Notes: generated from the letters alone by a model not told the origin. A stretch of DNA of 63,985 nt, filler included, from Bradymonadales bacterium (GCA_007693605.1; 4 parts of 4 records of this genome joined end to end with filler, not necessarily neighbours in it); one strand, 5' to 3'. Shown: positions 3,753 to 60,929, numbered from the whole stretch's first letter. Numbers and translations: made by a program.

Positions 3753-3876
3753 AAGCCACCTCCTTAAAAATTCAACTTACAAGGACTGTCGCGAAAAGCC
3801 ACCCCCCATTCAGGGTTTGGCAATCTCACTTCATAGGATTGAACACGAAATCCAGAAAAAGAAAACCCCTTCCTAC

Positions 3877-4488
3877 TTAATTCAAGCGGGCCGGGGGCTC
3901 AAAGCAAGATCGACATCGAGCCTCATAGCTCTCCAAAGCTCCCACAAAGAGCTTTTCGGTCTCATTACCCTGAATTCGCTGATTTCGGGTGGCAGGCCGG
4001 CCACAGCGAACACAGATGGCCAGCTGCTTGGTGACATACTCGGCCGAAGCCATCAGTTCTGGAATGGGGTCAAAGGGCCTCGCCCGAAAGTCAGAGTCGA
4101 TTCCCGCCACAATGAGCCTCTTGCCAGAGTCAGCCAGTTGATTGACCACCTCCACCAGGCTTTGGTCAAAGAACTGGGCCTCATCAATTCCCACGACCTG
4201 AGAGTCCTTCGCAAGCTCATAGATCTCGTCGGCCCTCTTCACTCGAAGCGCCGGAAGACTCACACGATCGTGGGTCACCACATGATCTTCAGAGTAGCGC
4301 TGATCAATCTCAGGCTTCACCAAAACACACGCCTGCTTGGCAATCATCGCCCGCCGGATTCTTCGGAGAAGCTCCTCAGTCTTTCCTGAGAACATACTCC
4401 CGGTAATGACCTCGATCCAACCGAATTGAGAGGGAACGGCATTTACCGGCAACTCTTGATAACGATCTCGAAATACTTCAATCACCAA
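3877..4488 (-). CDS. tdk: Thymidine kinase
   Basis: GSMFSGKTEEL P-loop, IDEAQFF, CxxC and YEARCRSCF zinc lasso. Confidence 0.96.
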   Translation of the reverse strand: MVIEVFRDRYQELPVNAVPSQFGWIEVITGSMFSGKTEELLRRIRRAMIAKQACVLVKPEIDQRYSEDHVVTHDRVSLPALRVKRADEIYELAKDSQVVGIDEAQFFDQSLVEVVNQLADSGKRLIVAGIDSDFRARPFDPIPELMASAEYVTKQLAICVRCGRPATRNQRIQGNETEKLFVGALESYEARCRSCFEPPARLN

Positions 4489-4597
4489 CCACCTCTCGTC
4501 CGTTTCTATCGATAGCGACCCCCAAACTCAAGTTGAACCTAAGCGCTCTTCAAAAAAAGTTTGTGACGACCTCTCTTTTGGAGGATGATGAGGTCTC

Positions 4598-5773
4598 GTG
4601 CGACACCAAACAACAAGAATTTGCCTTGTTCTCTGCATGAGCGCGCTTCCTTTCTCTTCGTTTTCGGAAGAGAACTTTCGGCTTGACTCAAGTCCAGAGG
4701 CCCTTCGTCCCCTGCAGCCCGAAGAAGAGTTGAGCGGGCTTTTGCGCTTGGAGCCTTCAGAGACGGCGACCGCCATTCGAAGGCTTCGAGAGAGCGATAC
4801 GATCAGGATTCTTCGATCACAGGGCGAATGGTACGAGCTCGAATTGGAAAGTGAAGAGGGCGTGGTCTTTCGGGGCTGGGTGAAAGCTAGCCTTGCACCA
4901 GAAAGACTGGCCGCCGAAGCGCCGAAAATGGCCGAACTGGACTCTCGACCCGAGGCTTTAGACTATTTTTTGGATCGCCGTTTGCGCTGGTTTTGGTCGC
5001 CTCGAATGAAGAGAGCTTTAACTCTTGAGTTTGGCTTGGGCCTTCAGAATCAAAGAACTCAGTGGGACGGAAATGACCCCAGCCTTCTCAACCCGGCAAG
5101 TAACCAACTCAACGGACTTGATCTTCAAGCCTCAGCAAAACTTCAAATACTCGAGTACGAATTTGGACCAGGCACGTGGGGGCTGGGCTCACAGTTCCGA
5201 TACCATTTGGGCTTTTACCAAGTAAACTTTCCCCCCGGAGAAGTGATTCCGCCAGAACTTCGAGGTCAAGCCTATCAACAACTGACCCACCAACTGCAAG
5301 CGGATCTGTTTAAGAGCTTTGTCAATTCCATTTCTCGGCTCCGACTTCGACTCGAAGCGGGGGTCGGCATTTTTTTTCATGAAAGCTCGCCAGACGCGAA
5401 GTCTGTGGTGGAGGGGCAGCCCGTGTTTACTCGGCTCGAGTTTTTCAGTCCGATGATTCGACTCGGAGCGGGTCTCGAATTCTCGGATCGATGGTCCACG
5501 ATGACCGAAACAGGCTTGATGCTTTTTTCTCAATGGTCTGAAACTCCCTCGGCCTCAGCCAACAAGCTTGAGACGACGGGCTTTCCGATTTGGCTTCGAA
5601 TCAAAACGGAATACCGCTGGCTCGATTGGCTGGGAAACTACTTAAGTGCAGAGGCTCTTCTTTTGAAGGCCCGACAAGACGGGCCTAGCAGTCGAGGTGG
5701 GATCACTTATGATCGCGTTGATCTTGACTTGCGACCTCTTCGAGTCACTGCAGGTTTTAGCCTGATATTTTAA
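4598..5773 (+). CDS. Exported protein with SH3b-like domain and probable outer-membrane beta-barrel
   Basis: Signal-peptide-like N-terminus, GEWYEL...RGWV SH3-like pattern, amphipathic strands, C-terminal Phe. Confidence 0.6.
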   Translation: MRHQTTRICLVLCMSALPFSSFSEENFRLDSSPEALRPLQPEEELSGLLRLEPSETATAIRRLRESDTIRILRSQGEWYELELESEEGVVFRGWVKASLAPERLAAEAPKMAELDSRPEALDYFLDRRLRWFWSPRMKRALTLEFGLGLQNQRTQWDGNDPSLLNPASNQLNGLDLQASAKLQILEYEFGPGTWGLGSQFRYHLGFYQVNFPPGEVIPPELRGQAYQQLTHQLQADLFKSFVNSISRLRLRLEAGVGIFFHESSPDAKSVVEGQPVFTRLEFFSPMIRLGAGLEFSDRWSTMTETGLMLFSQWSETPSASANKLETTGFPIWLRIKTEYRWLDWLGNYLSAEALLLKARQDGPSSRGGITYDRVDLDLRPLRVTAGFSLIF

Positions 5774-23869: not shown

Positions 23870-23969
23870 NNNNNNNNNNNNNNNNNNNNNNNNNNNNNNN
23901 NNNNNNNNNNNNNTTAATTAATTAANNNNNNNNNNNNNNNNNNNNNNNNNNNNNNNNNNNNNNNNNNNN
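23870..23969. other. Artificial contig linker
   Basis: N run with central TTAATTAATTAA (stops in all six frames). Confidence 0.99.
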
Positions 23970-27955: not shown

Positions 27956-29383
27956 TCACTTGACATTGAGGCAAGCCAGAGCTTCTTGATGGAGTTCCTT
28001 CAAGGCGGGCGCAGTCTGGGGATCGGCCCGCATGAAAGCAGAAAACCATTGTGCCAGCACTTCTTCGTGGCCGAGTGAGATTTCTTCACGGTCCCAGATA
28101 TCTGTGATCAACAGAACAAGAGACAAAAAGAGATCGGGATCTTCTTGAAGCAAATTCTCAAGATTCAATTTTAAGCCGAAGTTGAGGGCTTGACCCAGGT
28201 GAGGGAGTCGGGTGTTGGCTTGTGAAAACTCCTCCAAGAGCCGATAGCTGAGCTCAGCCTGCCAAAGGCTCTCTAGGCTTTTCAAACTGCGGCAAAAGGC
28301 TTGGCAGAATCTATGGGGTCCGAGTTCTGAATAAAGATACTGATTGAGTTCCGAGTGTTCCCAGACCAGCTTTCGAAGAGAGGCGGGAATTTCATGAGAG
28401 CCCAGAAAGACATTTTCTCGAATGGATTCGTTCAGATATTCGAGTGCAAGAAGTCTTCCTGTTTGCTGCCACCTCTTGAGATTTTCATAAGAGGGGAAAA
28501 TGGGCTGTTGATCTCTAAACGCCATCAAGAGAACAAACTCTCGTTGTTCAGCTGAAAGCTCGAGGCTAAAAAGATGAAGCTCCGTCCAGACCTCGATGGC
28601 TAGTGAGCTTTTCAGAAATGCTTCCAAGTCCTTGGGTGAAAGCTTCCTTTGATTTGTTGCCCTGTCGAAAACTCTTGCGGCTTCGTCGTGTTGGTAAATG
28701 CGAAGTCCGATTTTGCTGTGCTGTCTTAGGAGTTCGACGGCATCCAATCGCTGTTCTGCGCTGAATCCGCTCAAGCCTTGAAGGACCATTCGAGTGACCC
28801 CCTCGGTATCGCCGCAATGGTGGCCGATCATATCCAGCGCTTGAGAGATGCCTGAGGGGTTGGCAAAGCCAGGCTCCGCTAAAGTCCCAACCAAAAATGG
28901 AATGGCTGGCTCTCCAACTCTGACAATGGCATCTCGTGCGGTTCGTCGAATGAACCAACTCGGTGTCTCTAAAGTCTGAATCAGGACAGGCATGACCTGT
29001 TCCGTCGGCCGGCCAATTTGACCCAGACTTAAGATTGCGGCTTCTCGAACACTGAGATCTCGATCATGAGTCAGGGCGGTCAGTGCGGGAACGGCAGGAA
29101 TGGCCTCCTCTCCTAATCGGCCCACCTCTTGTGCGGCGGAAACCCTAACGACCCAACGAGGGTCAGAAAGTTCTGAGATCAAACGATCGAGTCGTTTCAT
29201 CGGTGCGGAGTTCTTATCGCGGGCATTCAGCCTCTCCTCGCCCACGGTCCCTTCAGTGCTTTCTTGAGTCTCCTGATCCTCCCAGGCTGTTCGAACGAGA
29301 TCTCCCATCCAGCCCCCAAAGCTCTCTTCGGCGCCCACAAGAACCGAAGCCAATAGAAATATAGAAAATAGATATCCCCTCAC
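27956..29383 (-). CDS. Exported HEAT-repeat protein
   Basis: Signal peptide; VRVSAAQEVGRLG and VREAAILSLGQIG HEAT/PBS repeats. Confidence 0.75.
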   Translation of the reverse strand: MRGYLFSIFLLASVLVGAEESFGGWMGDLVRTAWEDQETQESTEGTVGEERLNARDKNSAPMKRLDRLISELSDPRWVVRVSAAQEVGRLGEEAIPAVPALTALTHDRDLSVREAAILSLGQIGRPTEQVMPVLIQTLETPSWFIRRTARDAIVRVGEPAIPFLVGTLAEPGFANPSGISQALDMIGHHCGDTEGVTRMVLQGLSGFSAEQRLDAVELLRQHSKIGLRIYQHDEAARVFDRATNQRKLSPKDLEAFLKSSLAIEVWTELHLFSLELSAEQREFVLLMAFRDQQPIFPSYENLKRWQQTGRLLALEYLNESIRENVFLGSHEIPASLRKLVWEHSELNQYLYSELGPHRFCQAFCRSLKSLESLWQAELSYRLLEEFSQANTRLPHLGQALNFGLKLNLENLLQEDPDLFLSLVLLITDIWDREEISLGHEEVLAQWFSAFMRADPQTAPALKELHQEALACLNVK

Positions 29384-29455
29384 GAATCCCCCTCTCGTGA
29401 CTTCCCAGCCCTCAGACTAGCCACAGCGAAGCGATGAATTCAAGACAAAGTTGCT

Positions 29456-29494
29456 CTAGGCTCCTGGAAGGTGTTGGGGTTGTGGTCTTTGGGG
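29456..29494 (+). repeat. 39-bp direct repeat, left copy
   Basis: CTAGGCTCCTGGAAGGTGTTGGGGTTGTGGTCTTTGGGG, identical to 30935-30973. Confidence 0.95.
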
Positions 29495-29605
29495 ATGCTT
29501 CGAAGACCGATAAGCCCGCCGAAGAACAGTGGATCTGAAACCACAAGCTGGGTCATTGTTCAATGATTATGGCCTGTCCACCTAGAGTGCACAGCGAGTC
29601 ACCTT

Positions 29606-30337
29606 TTACCAAGCTTCAGGCTTGTGAATCTTTCTGCCCTTGCACTCAATGACAGCTGGAAATTGACTAATCTGAAGCAAACCCTCTCGAATGACTTTGA
29701 AGAAATCGGACTGTCGCATCAACTCTTGGGCAGCGGTGTAGAATTTTCGTTTCCTGCCGCTTCCTACCCTGGAGTTAAAAGCCTCGACCCTCTTTCTGTT
29801 TCTATCATAGTGAGGATTTATCAAACCTATCTTCTTGCGAAACTTCTCTCTGACCATTCTCATTGGCGTCTCTAGGTCCGAATCGTTCGATATCACGACA
29901 GCGCAGTCGAACGAGCTGGAAAAGGCATCCATCAACAAATGGCACGCCAAATTAACATCGGACCCTTTTTCTTCTGTCTTCAACACCTTGACTGACTCTA
30001 GCTCTTGTCCGTTATGGGTAATCAGCGGCTCAACCAACCGTGCTGGTTTCACGCCTTGTTTGAAGTGTCCGAAGTAACACTCTACTTTATCAAGTGTTTC
30101 TAGCGCCTTCAAATAGGCAGACTGTCTTAGCGGCGCATCCTCATCATCCACACGCGGGCTAACGCGAGCGGTGAAGTATTTGATCTTAACAATTTCATTT
30201 TCTTTGAGAAGATTTGAGCAGAGCGCTTCGAGGTTAAGCCACTTGTAGTTTGTGTGCCTGAGACAACCATAGTACAAGTTGAAGCCGTCAATATAGACAT
30301 ATGTCTTCTCTTTAGTTTTCTTTTGATTCGCTGCCAT
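29606..30337 (-). CDS. NYN domain (LabA/DUF88, PIN-like) ribonuclease
   Basis: VYIDGFNLYY, EEKGSDVNLA, VISNDSDL; acidic catalytic residues intact. Confidence 0.93.
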   Translation of the reverse strand: MAANQKKTKEKTYVYIDGFNLYYGCLRHTNYKWLNLEALCSNLLKENEIVKIKYFTARVSPRVDDEDAPLRQSAYLKALETLDKVECYFGHFKQGVKPARLVEPLITHNGQELESVKVLKTEEKGSDVNLACHLLMDAFSSSFDCAVVISNDSDLETPMRMVREKFRKKIGLINPHYDRNRKRVEAFNSRVGSGRKRKFYTAAQELMRQSDFFKVIREGLLQISQFPAVIECKGRKIHKPEAW

Positions 30338-30441
30338 AAAAATGCAGAAGCCGCTTCAAAGAGCGGCTTCGCGCCCTACTGACGAAACAGTAGGGGTAAT
30401 AAAAACTCTGGTATAGATCTAGTTCAATTCCAGTATACCAG
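30338..30441 (-). ncRNA. Candidate structured leader/ncRNA upstream of the NYN gene
   Basis: Inverted repeats at 30408-30441 (8 bp), 30374-30395 (8 bp) and 30347-30370 (9 bp), followed by TGCATTTTT-ATG. Confidence 0.6.
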
Positions 30442-30553
30442 CAACGGCATAATGAAAGAATACCGCGCCTGTAGAAAAAAACAAATAAAATCAGTTAATT
30501 GCGCGCCATGCCGCCTGCGGTGGGGGGGGCGGCAAAAGAACAAGTCCACATTT

Positions 30554-30824
30554 CTAGTGGTCCAACCGGTAAATTTTTTCCTGTTGTGAATCAAGCTTTT
30601 GCTTCGAATCAAGGCGCGAGGGTGGGATCAGGTTGGGTACCTATGCCATCCCGAGCAACGCTGAGTCGGGGCAAAAGCTTGATTCCCTTCGGGCTGGGCC
30701 CTTTTGAGCCGCTGCGGCGTTGTCGCTCGTTGTATATGTCCAATATGCGTCTCGCTGCCGCCTTGCATCGGCCTCAAACTGGCCTCAGCACAACACGGAA
30801 ACAATTTACCGGTTGGACCACTAG
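30554..30824. mobile_element. 271-bp MITE-like element
   Basis: 22-bp perfect TIR CTAGTGGTCCAACCGGTAAATT, extending imperfectly to ~35 bp; partial copies at 23970-24040 and 10665-10677. Confidence 0.8.
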
Positions 30825-30934
30825 GAGTGTCAGAACTCCGCAGATCCTCTGGGAAGAGACTCTCGGCTTTTGCAGCCAACAGTTCGCAAATTCACCTGCT
30901 TCTTTTGAGCTCTTCTTTTCTAAGCGGGCTTTTG

Positions 30935-30973
30935 CTAGGCTCCTGGAAGGTGTTGGGGTTGTGGTCTTTGGGG
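30935..30973 (+). repeat. 39-bp direct repeat, right copy
   Basis: Identical to 29456-29494. Confidence 0.95.
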
Positions 30974-31768
30974 TGGATGGCATTATTCTGCTTGGGCGAA
31001 GTTGGCGAATTGGCGGGTCCTTCACTCTATATGCCTCGATTGAAGTCCTTTGAAGTGGCCGAGGTCGAGAGGATGGGGCCAGTCTCTCTCGAAGACCTGA
31101 GGGCCGAATTGAAGGAGAGTTTTTTACCAGAGGCCTTTCATCCAGAAATTCTCGATCAGGTTTTGTGGAGTCTTTCGTGGTTGAGCTGGGCAGCGAGGAA
31201 CCCCACTCAAGGCTTTTCAAAAGAGAACTTCCGGTCCCATGCCCTTCGTGTTCTTCGACAGCTCGAAGCGGCTTCTGAAGATTTCTCGGATTCTGAGATG
31301 GGGGCGCTGGGGGAGCTCAGAGTGGCCGCTCATCTTGTGGCTCGTGGCTACTCGCTTCAAGGGATTCGAGAGTCTTATCGAATGAAGATCAGGGGCAAAT
31401 CCGAAGTGGGGGAGTTTGATCTTCTGATCCGAGACCCCGAAGACTCAAAGTTGCTTTGGGCTGTCGAGGTAAAGGCAAGATTGGGCGACCGACATCTTTC
31501 GAATCGAAGTCGAGAGTCTTTGAGAAAATTAAGGAGAGCCCAGAAAGCGAGCGAAGCCGGCCAGCTCGTTCTGGAAGCGGGCAAGGGGCAAGCGCGGATC
31601 TCAAGGCTTTTGGTCTTTAGTCTAGAAGAGCCAAGTCAGAAGATTCAAGAGAGGCATGGAAAGCTTTTTCCTGACATCGACCTGAAGACTTATCCGCCAG
31701 GATTGATGCGTTCAAGCGCTTTCCCCTCTCGAAGGATGGGCCCCTCTGCCTCTAAAGAGACCCGCTGA
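30950..31768 (+). CDS. PD-(D/E)XK nuclease, YraN-like C-terminal domain, with hydrophobic N-terminus
   Basis: GALGELRVAAHL..GY...GEFDLL...AVEVKAR; start uncertain (tracked ORF begins inside the MITE). Confidence 0.65.
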   Translation: MLGLWSLGWMALFCLGEVGELAGPSLYMPRLKSFEVAEVERMGPVSLEDLRAELKESFLPEAFHPEILDQVLWSLSWLSWAARNPTQGFSKENFRSHALRVLRQLEAASEDFSDSEMGALGELRVAAHLVARGYSLQGIRESYRMKIRGKSEVGEFDLLIRDPEDSKLLWAVEVKARLGDRHLSNRSRESLRKLRRAQKASEAGQLVLEAGKGQARISRLLVFSLEEPSQKIQERHGKLFPDIDLKTYPPGLMRSSAFPSRRMGPSASKETR

Positions 31769-31855
31769 GCCGTCTTTGGCGACTCCAGAAATACGGGGAA
31801 AGCCCTTGTCAAAGACCAAGTTCGATTGCACAATCTGGCCCTGGAGGTTTTGGCT

Positions 31856-32281
31856 GTGAATACTCAACTGATTGCAAAATTGAATGAAATTCTAGAGTGG
31901 GAGCTTTCAGGCGTGGCTCGTTATCTGCACTACTCTTTGATGGTGACGGGTCCCAATCGAATTCCCATTGTGAAGTGGTTTCGGGATCAGGCGAGCGAGG
32001 CCTTTGATCACGCCGCCACGATTGGCGAAAAAATTACCGCGCTTGGCGGGCACCCCTCCATCAAAGTGACACAACCCCCCGAGAGAAATGAGCACGGGGT
32101 GATGGCTATTCTGAACGAAAGTTTAGAATATGAGTTAGAGGGTCTAAAAATGTACGAAGCGGTTTTGGCGATGACGGATGGAAACATTGCCCTGGAAGAG
32201 TTGATCCGCGAGCAGATTCGTTTAGAGCAGGAGCATGTTGAAGAGGTTCGAAAAATGCTTGCTCCAGCTTCCAGTCACTAG
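31856..32281 (+). CDS. Ferritin-like/bacterioferritin family protein
   Basis: ELSGVARY, E..HA, E.EG, EQEH diiron pattern; GTG after GGAGG. Confidence 0.88.
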   Translation: MNTQLIAKLNEILEWELSGVARYLHYSLMVTGPNRIPIVKWFRDQASEAFDHAATIGEKITALGGHPSIKVTQPPERNEHGVMAILNESLEYELEGLKMYEAVLAMTDGNIALEELIREQIRLEQEHVEEVRKMLAPASSH

Positions 32282-47717: not shown

Positions 47718-47817
47718 NNNNNNNNNNNNNNNNNNNNNNNNNNNNNNNNNNNNNNNNNNNNTTAATTAATTAANNNNNNNNNNNNNNNNNNNNNNNNNNN
47801 NNNNNNNNNNNNNNNNN
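47718..47817. other. Artificial contig linker
   Basis: N run with TTAATTAATTAA. Confidence 0.99.
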
Positions 47818-60829: not shown

Positions 60830-60929
60830 NNNNNNNNNNNNNNNNNNNNNNNNNNNNNNNNNNNNNNNNNNNNTTAATTAATTAANNNNNNNNNNNNNNN
60901 NNNNNNNNNNNNNNNNNNNNNNNNNNNNN
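60830..60929. other. Artificial contig linker
   Basis: N run with TTAATTAATTAA. Confidence 0.99.

Follow-up and report, generated by a model that had tools for sequence, protein, structure and literature searches.

A candidate small RNA gene with a conserved two-hairpin fold beside NYN nuclease genes of the HEC-09 family

Which role does the short structured leader play that abuts the start codon of a NYN-domain nuclease gene in a Bradymonadales bacterium? The stretch of DNA in question (GCA_007693605.1; 63,985 nt, in the following referred to as the window) consists of several contigs joined by N runs at 23870-23969, 47718-47817, and 60830-60929; the locus is located on the second contig (window 23970-47717). 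An earlier note on this sequence had described two hairpins immediately upstream of the gene, and had proposed that a leader of ~95 nt constitutes a discrete non-coding RNA (ncRNA) that binds and inhibits, or autoregulates, the nuclease. As judged from comparative sequence analysis, the locus harbors a ~65-nt RNA gene whose copies are paired nearly one-to-one with HEC-09-family NYN genes. We suggest, with about an even chance of being right, that the RNA binds the nuclease and keeps it inactive, similar to the antitoxins of type III toxin-antitoxin systems and of AbiF.

The RNA motif and its nuclease gene

The sequence elements described in the earlier note are all present at their places on the minus strand. 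An inverted repeat of 8 bp (CTGGTATA, 30441-30434; TATACCAG, 30415-30408) includes in its region a possible extended -10 element (TGGTATACT, 30440-30432). It is followed by hairpin 1 (CCCTACTG, 30395-30388; loop TTTCGT; CAGTAGGG, 30381-30374) and hairpin 2 (GAAGCCGCT, 30370-30362; loop CTTTGA; AGCGGCTTC, 30355-30347). Directly 3' of hairpin 2 is the sequence TGCATTTTT (30346-30338), and the ATG of the NYN open reading frame (ORF) then starts at 30337. The predicted fold of the 63-nt RNA consists of the same two hairpins (minimum free energy -31.6 kcal/mol, z = -7.13, none of 200 shuffled sequences being as stable) and lengthens hairpin 2 by two G-C pairs (G-C/C-G) around a bulged U. Hairpin 2 is the sole terminator-like site within 29000-31500. 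The features of the locus are the following:

29606..30337, minus strand: NYN-domain nuclease gene of the PADLOC HEC-09 family, 243 amino acids (aa); Pfam, PADLOC, structural model, invariant Asp
30338..30400, minus strand: small RNA motif; covariance model, fold, terminator-like site, covariation
30395-30374, minus strand: P1 of the RNA motif, 8 bp, loop UUUCGU
between P1 and P2, minus strand: linker CGC of the RNA motif
30372-30344, minus strand: P2 of the RNA motif, 11 bp around a bulged U (30346), loop CUUUGA
30343-30338, minus strand: U-tract of the RNA motif, abutting the ATG
30408..30441, minus strand: candidate promoter region with CTGGTATA/TATACCAG, TGGTATACT, and TATACC; sequence, -10 position in homologs

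The protein encoded by the ORF at 29606-30337 matches the Pfam family NYN (PF01936; 40.6 bits versus a cut-off of 24.2, E = 4.6e-10, residues 11-172) as well as the PADLOC profile of HEC-09 (PDLC04163; E = 3.6e-43, residues 10-182). NYN is the sole Pfam match, and the Pfam scan gave no match to Abi_2 or HEPN. An AlphaFold2 model of the nuclease (pLDDT 90.4) has its best PDB matches, as identified by Foldseek, in 2qip (E = 4.6e-8) and the NYN domain of MARF1, and all 23 aligned homologs retain the residues D17, D127, D152, and D154. The predicted model and the alignment both point to a PIN-like fold with conserved acidic active-site residues, in agreement with the earlier designation of the gene as an intact NYN/PIN-fold RNase. 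LabA-like and MARF1 NYN domains (PDB 2qip, 6fdl, 5yaa) have the same catalytic fold and acidic active site, whereas the family considered here adds a long beta-hairpin and ~65 C-terminal aa, for which the model has no structural match. To our knowledge, LabA-like and MARF1 NYN proteins have no dedicated RNA partner.

Homologs in genome contigs were found using an alignment as query; a single-protein query gave no relative. The family is very large, with 7,989 of 8,000 scored candidates reaching E <= 0.001, and a quick protein tree places its members in at least 17 named phyla that are mixed throughout. The protein closest to the window copy (P0002) has 59% identity, and a metagenome scan yielded no relative of more than 48% identity. 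Only these two proteins, the window copy and P0002, contain a basic insertion of 24 aa; a typical family member has ~207 aa.

Two sets of loci were considered for the RNA, 80 from genomes and 80 from metagenomes, the latter of which played no part in model building. Within 130 nt upstream of the gene, 48 of 76 homolog loci have a perfect hairpin of at least 7 bp, mostly with the same sequence theme. The covariance model (R1) identifies the motif in 79 of the 80 genome loci and in 79 of the 80 independent metagenome loci (70 of the 79 rows are distinct); the window copy is recovered at 30338-30414 (65.6 bits, E = 5.8e-20). Both misses are cut by contig ends: in the genome set the contig of L028 ends 23 nt after the gene, in the metagenome set L093 has 25 nt of contig upstream. 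Overall, the motif adjoins the NYN gene in 158 of 160 loci.

From 5' to 3', the consensus consists of a promoter-like -35/-10 site, ~5-9 nt further on a C-run that opens P1 with its CUUCGG loop, the junction GGG-YGCG, P2 (GAGGCCGCC-loop-GGCGGCCUC), a bulged U, and then GC and the U-tract. The conserved RNA comprises ~65 nt; it begins a few nt 5' of the C-run and extends to the U-tract. Its sequence is nearly constant across phyla, including a Saccharibacteria locus (L069), without a variable segment able to serve as a guide. A plain alignment (MAFFT, evaluated using RNAalifold and not model-fitted) has double-sided compensatory changes in 10 of 14 pairs. The model-fitted alignment of the genome set has 95.1% of cells paired and 15 of 17 pairs changed on both sides, with a covariation score of 0.538 (shuffles 0.200, none of 500 reaching the observed score; slid controls at most 0.12). 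In the corresponding alignment of the independent set, 97.5% of cells are paired and 15 of 17 pairs again have changes on both sides, at a score of 0.576 (shuffles 0.203, slid controls at most 0.118). The covariation in these alignments shows the predicted RNA structure, and a covarying two-hairpin motif near homologous genes, whose search the earlier note had suggested together with that of Rfam, is indeed found.

The second of these searches gave no match: no Rfam 15 family is found in window 28500-32000 at E <= 1, nor at the motif in 12 canonical loci at E <= 0.5, where one sub-threshold match to ylbH is located ~2 kb off. The motif therefore appears to constitute an uncatalogued RNA family, without a match in Rfam 15. 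The searched literature (subscription journals aside) gave no description of this RNA and nothing that links a NYN domain with type III toxin-antitoxin systems; the main texts of the motif-discovery papers found there do not contain the term 'NYN'.

The RNA is located upstream of the NYN gene and on the same strand in 119 of the 158 loci (65 genome and 54 metagenome loci). A further 36 loci (14 and 22, respectively) have the RNA in a convergent arrangement, on the opposite strand right after the NYN stop codon, and 3 loci have it in a divergent arrangement, on the opposite strand upstream. For 13 of the 14 convergent loci of the genome set, the U-tract ends at -3 to +9 nt from the stop codon. 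G-U pairs outnumber A-C pairs 75:13 in same-strand copies and 19:1 in convergent copies; the excess in both arrangements indicates that the modelled strand is the strand that folds. In the quick tree the convergent form is clustered: 3 changes are needed, of which well-supported branches force only 1, and the form has been retained over deep branches of the NYN tree. Since the RNA is convergent or divergent in 39 of the 158 loci, it is likely to be a separate small RNA gene and not merely a leader. The proposed discrete ncRNA hence gains support, being conserved, covarying, and tied to NYN genes, but its length is ~65 nt instead of ~95 nt, and the term leader is too narrow.

A strict sigma-70 match is found upstream of 25 of 69 same-strand copies and 3 of 14 convergent copies, versus none of 82 control positions, and all 14 convergent copies have a -10 element whose end is located 11-15 nt ahead of P1. 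These sites agree with an independent RNA gene, which would be delimited by a promoter-like site at one end and an intrinsic terminator at the other. A scan of 29000-31500 for the sigma-70 consensus called no promoter. TATACC (30415-30410) fills the slot of the -10 element of the homologs, and TGGTATACT is located 27 nt further upstream; together both sites form the inverted repeat, which is specific to the window and not conserved among homologous loci. The possible extended -10 element that had been noted within this inverted repeat is thus present in sequence, but the homologs have their -10 element elsewhere. Likewise, the 9 nt that separate the stem of hairpin 2 from the ATG of the window contain no purine-rich Shine-Dalgarno sequence, as had been pointed out; the same holds for a minority of loci whose ATG abuts the U-tract, but not in general. 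Three metatranscriptome runs from the same study have 0 reads on the window stretch, which says nothing on expression.

Five whole genomes (19.4 Mb) contain 9 matches to the motif, of which 8 adjoin a NYN gene, and 8 of 8 stand-alone family genes in these genomes, one of them a pseudogene, have the motif. One of the five holds both a tandem and a convergent copy, and some genomes harbor 2-4 copies of RNA and NYN gene. The 2.19-Mb genome of the window contains one motif, according to both a DNA search and the covariance model, and one family gene. In this genome the motif is hence not a genome-wide hairpin repeat resembling repetitive extragenic palindromes (REP) or miniature inverted-repeat transposable elements (MITE), an origin the earlier note had considered; the neighbouring 283-nt element is dispersed. 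Further motif copies occur before a second NYN gene (L012), before a decayed NYN fragment (L052), as tandem duplicates (L065), and as orphans (L030, L051), and none of these accompanies another gene family. No protein neighbour is conserved: the largest flanking family is found in just 3 of 79 loci, which indicates that there is no protein partner and agrees with the absence of a protein antitoxin gene noted earlier.

The RNA as a putative antitoxin

We consider the following scenario for the role of the RNA. It would be made as a discrete transcript. The start codon is located a median of 12 nt beyond the end of the model (61 tandem loci; 0 nt in the window), which leaves no room for a separate promoter. 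In tandem loci, with 0-30 nt between the terminator and the start codon, read-through transcripts would therefore be the only source of the nuclease, and the RNA would as a consequence exceed the protein. The 5' C-run, the CUUCGG loop, the GCG junction, and UGC may provide the surface recognized by the protein. Binding of the RNA would block a growth-inhibiting RNase until the supply of RNA drops, for example upon loss of the cassette or shut-off of transcription by a phage.

This scenario is favoured by analogy to AbiF. AbiF is neutralised in cis and in trans by an adjacent structured ncRNA through direct binding (10.1101/2025.04.15.648962; PMC12737573). Initially, this ncRNA (AbiFr; RCd22 in a Clostridioides difficile prophage) had been no more than a motif from comparative genomics. 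Both systems consist of a stand-alone nuclease gene and an adjoining short, structured, and conserved ncRNA, and, as far as these reports go, both are found on prophages and other mobile DNA. Furthermore, in both cases the RNA is invariant and has no guide-like variable part, a protein partner is lacking, and plasmids and prophages carry the pair like a selfish cassette. However, AbiF is a HEPN (Abi_2) RNase, whereas the protein considered here is NYN/PIN-like. Its RNA matches no Rfam family and is therefore not the abiF motif, it is also found convergent or divergent to the gene, and its role is predicted from sequence.

In classical type III systems (ToxIN, CptIN, TenpIN) the antitoxin consists of tandem repeats that are processed by the toxin, and the toxin has the ToxN/AbiQ fold. 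Their order of promoter, RNA, intrinsic terminator, and endoribonuclease gene corresponds to the arrangement in the 119 same-strand loci; they likewise have no protein antitoxin and are found on plasmids and in defence islands. The earlier comparison of the layout to type III systems and AbiF thus stands, together with its remark that the nuclease fold differs from both. The RNA considered here is a single two-hairpin unit: 30300-30560 is free of tandem repeats and the leader is free of direct repeats, and only L065 carries the whole motif twice in tandem. The ToxN/AbiQ fold was not found, NYN being the only fold match in Pfam and PDB.

The protein family itself had already been catalogued. 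Payne et al. (bioRxiv 10.1101/2024.01.29.577857) describe HEC-09, in the available text, as a candidate NYN, MARF1-like predicted RNase with conserved aspartates that is embedded in Hma systems. Some cassettes of the homologs considered here are found in loci with DUF1156/ATPase and type I restriction genes, whereas the window copy is located outside defence systems. The main text of that study treats HEC-09 as a single protein and does not mention an RNA.

Several points speak against an antitoxin. The NYN fold differs from those of ToxN and AbiF, and the RNA (30300-30560) is without the tandem repeats of classical type III antitoxins. Orphan RNA copies without a gene exist in L030, in L051, and once in G044, and the covariation counts (15 of 17 pairs) of both sets come from model-fitted alignments. 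Moreover, the earlier note knew of no characterised system of this kind, but HEC-09 had been tested: cloned with ~150 bp of native upstream DNA, it protected against none of the phages in the screen, and the available text notes toxicity only for HEC-03 and HEC-04, HEC-09 not being among the toxic clones (10.1101/2024.01.29.577857). A neutralised toxin would agree with the outcome of this screen, and a harmless protein would do so just as well.

Together with its invariant RNA companion, a hypothetical nuclease that is listed as a candidate defence gene of unassigned function becomes a testable two-component system, and the companion suggests why the protein, alone or together with its RNA, gave no phenotype in the defence screen. 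If the RNA acts as an antitoxin, RNA-antitoxin systems would extend to PIN-like nucleases, and the motif would follow the RNA of AbiF as the second one that was identified by comparative genomics next to a nuclease and then proved to regulate this nuclease. Bench tests are easy with the copies carried by 3.46-kb E. coli plasmids.

Mobility and competing explanations

The earlier note, correct on the elements it named, had overlooked two features of the locus, namely a direct repeat around the gene and a MITE-like repeat in the intergenic region:

30935..30973, no strand: 39-nt direct repeat, upstream copy; perfect, bounds the cassette
29456..29494, no strand: 39-nt direct repeat, downstream copy; 111 nt beyond the NYN stop codon
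30548..30830, no strand: MITE-like element of 283 nt with 34-nt terminal inverted repeats, between the direct repeat and the RNA promoter

The two copies of the direct repeat start 1479 nt apart and enclose the NYN gene, the RNA, and the MITE-like element. Two copies in the window compare to 0 expected, and a search of the own genome matched neither copy elsewhere. Without the MITE-like element, the enclosed DNA has a GC content of 0.464, on a par with the minimum among 76 windows of the contig (mean 0.499, sd 0.015), and the NYN gene is found in 0 of 40 related genomes. The MITE-like element has seven further near-full copies (94-99% identity) and many fragments in the same 2.19-Mb genome. 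Since several fragments coincide with the ends of contigs, the assembly is probably interrupted by the element. It constitutes a separate, later insertion inside the cassette, and contains a nested inverted repeat of 24 nt.

Flanking repeats of at least 20 nt are found in 9 of 79 loci, compared to 1 of 137 shifted controls; among the nine, the repeat of L030 is the duplicated motif and the 128-nt repeat of L050 is a duplicated flanking gene. The independent set has such repeats in 6 of 64 loci and 0 of 64 controls. The repeats duplicate starts or ends of genes, namely of a DUF1156 gene in L027, of HsdR in L018, and of an arginase-family gene in L083. Some homologs, for example in L027, L018, L061, and L025, are embedded in defence-type loci (DUF1156/ATPase and type I restriction loci); the window copy is not embedded in Hma or another defence system, its neighbours being a HEAT-repeat gene and a weakly YraN-like gene. 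We note that in L027 (2208-3219), L018 (3140-3173), and L057 the cassette is located exactly at the start of a defence gene (a DUF1156 methylase-type gene or HsdR) whose first codons are duplicated. L027 and L057 originate from different phyla and have part of the same duplicated DUF1156 start sequence in common, a hint that insertion into this kind of site has recurred.

Plasmids (62 records) and phages (3 records) also carry members of the family. All four of the records checked contain the RNA: it is tandem on a 3.46-kb E. coli plasmid and on a Leptospira plasmid, and convergent on a Paenarthrobacter plasmid and in a Mycobacterium prophage. The pair of RNA and NYN gene hence behaves as a mobile, horizontally moving cassette of chromosomes, plasmids, and prophage. 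The E. coli plasmid (L171; NZ_CP091696.1, 3461 bp) has three annotated genes, coding for a helix-turn-helix (HTH) protein, a VbhA-family antitoxin without an annotated toxin partner, and the NYN protein, with the RNA motif 14 nt upstream of the latter; the plasmid size of 3,461 bp recurs in records of E. coli and Serratia rubidaea. In the Mycobacterium phage prophiGD43A-1 (L172, 3279-3979) gene 6, annotated as hypothetical, is a member of the NYN family. The convergent RNA overlaps its stop codon, and the site is located between integrase and immunity repressor.

It is a tentative and rather doubtful extension that these loci form a phylum-spanning class of two-part selfish or defence cassettes, in which a NYN nuclease is held by a dedicated 65-nt RNA, combining a new toxin fold with a new RNA, and whose insertion at the boundaries of genes would generate target duplications of unusually great and variable length. 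Such insertion would explain why the cassette is found 'embedded' in defence systems. The long flanking duplications also raise the separate question of how such small cassettes move.

The same observations permit a reading in which RNA and nuclease are themselves the machinery of a small mobile cassette: cutting of the target or of the element would fall to the nuclease, with the hairpins, either as RNA or as single-stranded DNA, serving as its recognition site, and the pair would exist in order to move rather than to poison or defend. The perfect repeat around the window cassette, the excess of flanking repeats over controls in both sets, the duplicated starts and ends of genes, the absence of the gene from related genomes, the mixing of phyla in the NYN tree, the multiple copies per genome, and the extreme GC content all agree with such a cassette. 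However, most loci have no visible flanking repeat, the repeats range in length from 18 to 68 nt and beyond, in contrast to the duplication of fixed size that a transposase makes, and by eye no common sequence is found just inside of them. The conserved promoter-like site and U-tract as well as the retention of G-U pairs argue for a transcript, and the solved NYN relatives among the structure matches are RNases or proteins without assigned function. We regard this reading as unlikely, with the reservation that mobility and a toxin-antitoxin role are compatible and not mutually exclusive.

Autoregulatory 5' leaders are known from the E. coli ribonuclease genes rne, rnc, and pnp, where they are structured parts of the mRNA; RNase E and RNase III regulate their own genes by cleavage of the leader. 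Correspondingly, the motif might act purely in cis, either by attenuation of NYN transcription at the hairpin-terminator or as a leader cleaved by the nuclease itself, without any trans-acting RNA. Like these leaders, the RNA stands immediately before a ribonuclease gene in the same-strand loci, with the terminator close to the start codon and, in the window, abutting it. Such a role is nevertheless improbable, since the RNA has a promoter-like site and a terminator of its own and can be on the other strand: the 36 convergent and 3 divergent copies keep the promoter-like site at the same distance as well as the intact structure opposite to the gene, the convergent form is found across deep branches of the NYN tree, and both forms coexist in one genome. 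The evidence from linkage and conservation applies equally if the RNA is a substrate, cofactor, or activator of the nuclease, that is, if it is processed into a functional small RNA or is needed for the recognition of targets or the sensing of infection; AbiF also processes its own ncRNA (PMC12737573). We nonetheless give this explanation a slim chance, because the RNA is nearly constant across phyla without a guide-like segment, and the placement of a terminator before the gene, which favours an excess of RNA over protein, is a feature of antitoxins. Very improbable, finally, is an antisense or anti-Shine-Dalgarno regulator that pairs with the NYN mRNA and controls its translation or decay, either with the ribosome-binding site through the conserved C-run in front of P1 or, in convergent loci, with a read-through 3' untranslated region (UTR). 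A NYN transcript of convergent loci that extends beyond its stop codon would indeed be fully complementary to the RNA, but tandem loci have no such 3' UTR complementarity and conserve the RNA equally well. In addition, the window gene has no Shine-Dalgarno sequence to mask, and in a crude test the starts of 26 NYN genes pair no better than those of 130 other ORFs of the same loci (median -33.7 versus -36.7 kcal/mol, one-sided p = 0.99).

Neighbouring features and individual loci

The divergent neighbour of the window cassette (31028-31768, plus strand) encodes a protein of 246 aa without a Pfam family and with a sub-threshold NCBIfam similarity to YraN (best E = 1.3e-4). This gene, on the far side of the cassette, is found in 0 of 20 related genomes; it may thus also be accessory DNA, and these genomes offer no uninterrupted (empty) site for comparison. 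Within the gene, 17 of 20 bases at 31265-31284 (plus strand) match the 3' arm and tail of the RNA (30338-30357), possibly by chance.

Some individual loci deviate from the common arrangement. The orphan motif at G044:C1:886893-886967 has no NYN gene detected beside it. Conversely, a NYN domain of the family is part of a 955-aa open frame at G043:C1:48854-49438, with no RNA motif nearby. L052 (1877-2500) consists of the RNA, then the decayed NYN fragment, and then an intact NYN gene 546 nt further on. L036 harbors a reverse-transcriptase gene (3864-4985, minus strand; RVT_1, E = 7.7e-21) ~900 nt downstream of a cassette with a flanking 49-nt direct repeat. In L046 (2364-2500) a unit of 14 nt is present in three copies between the RNA and the gene.

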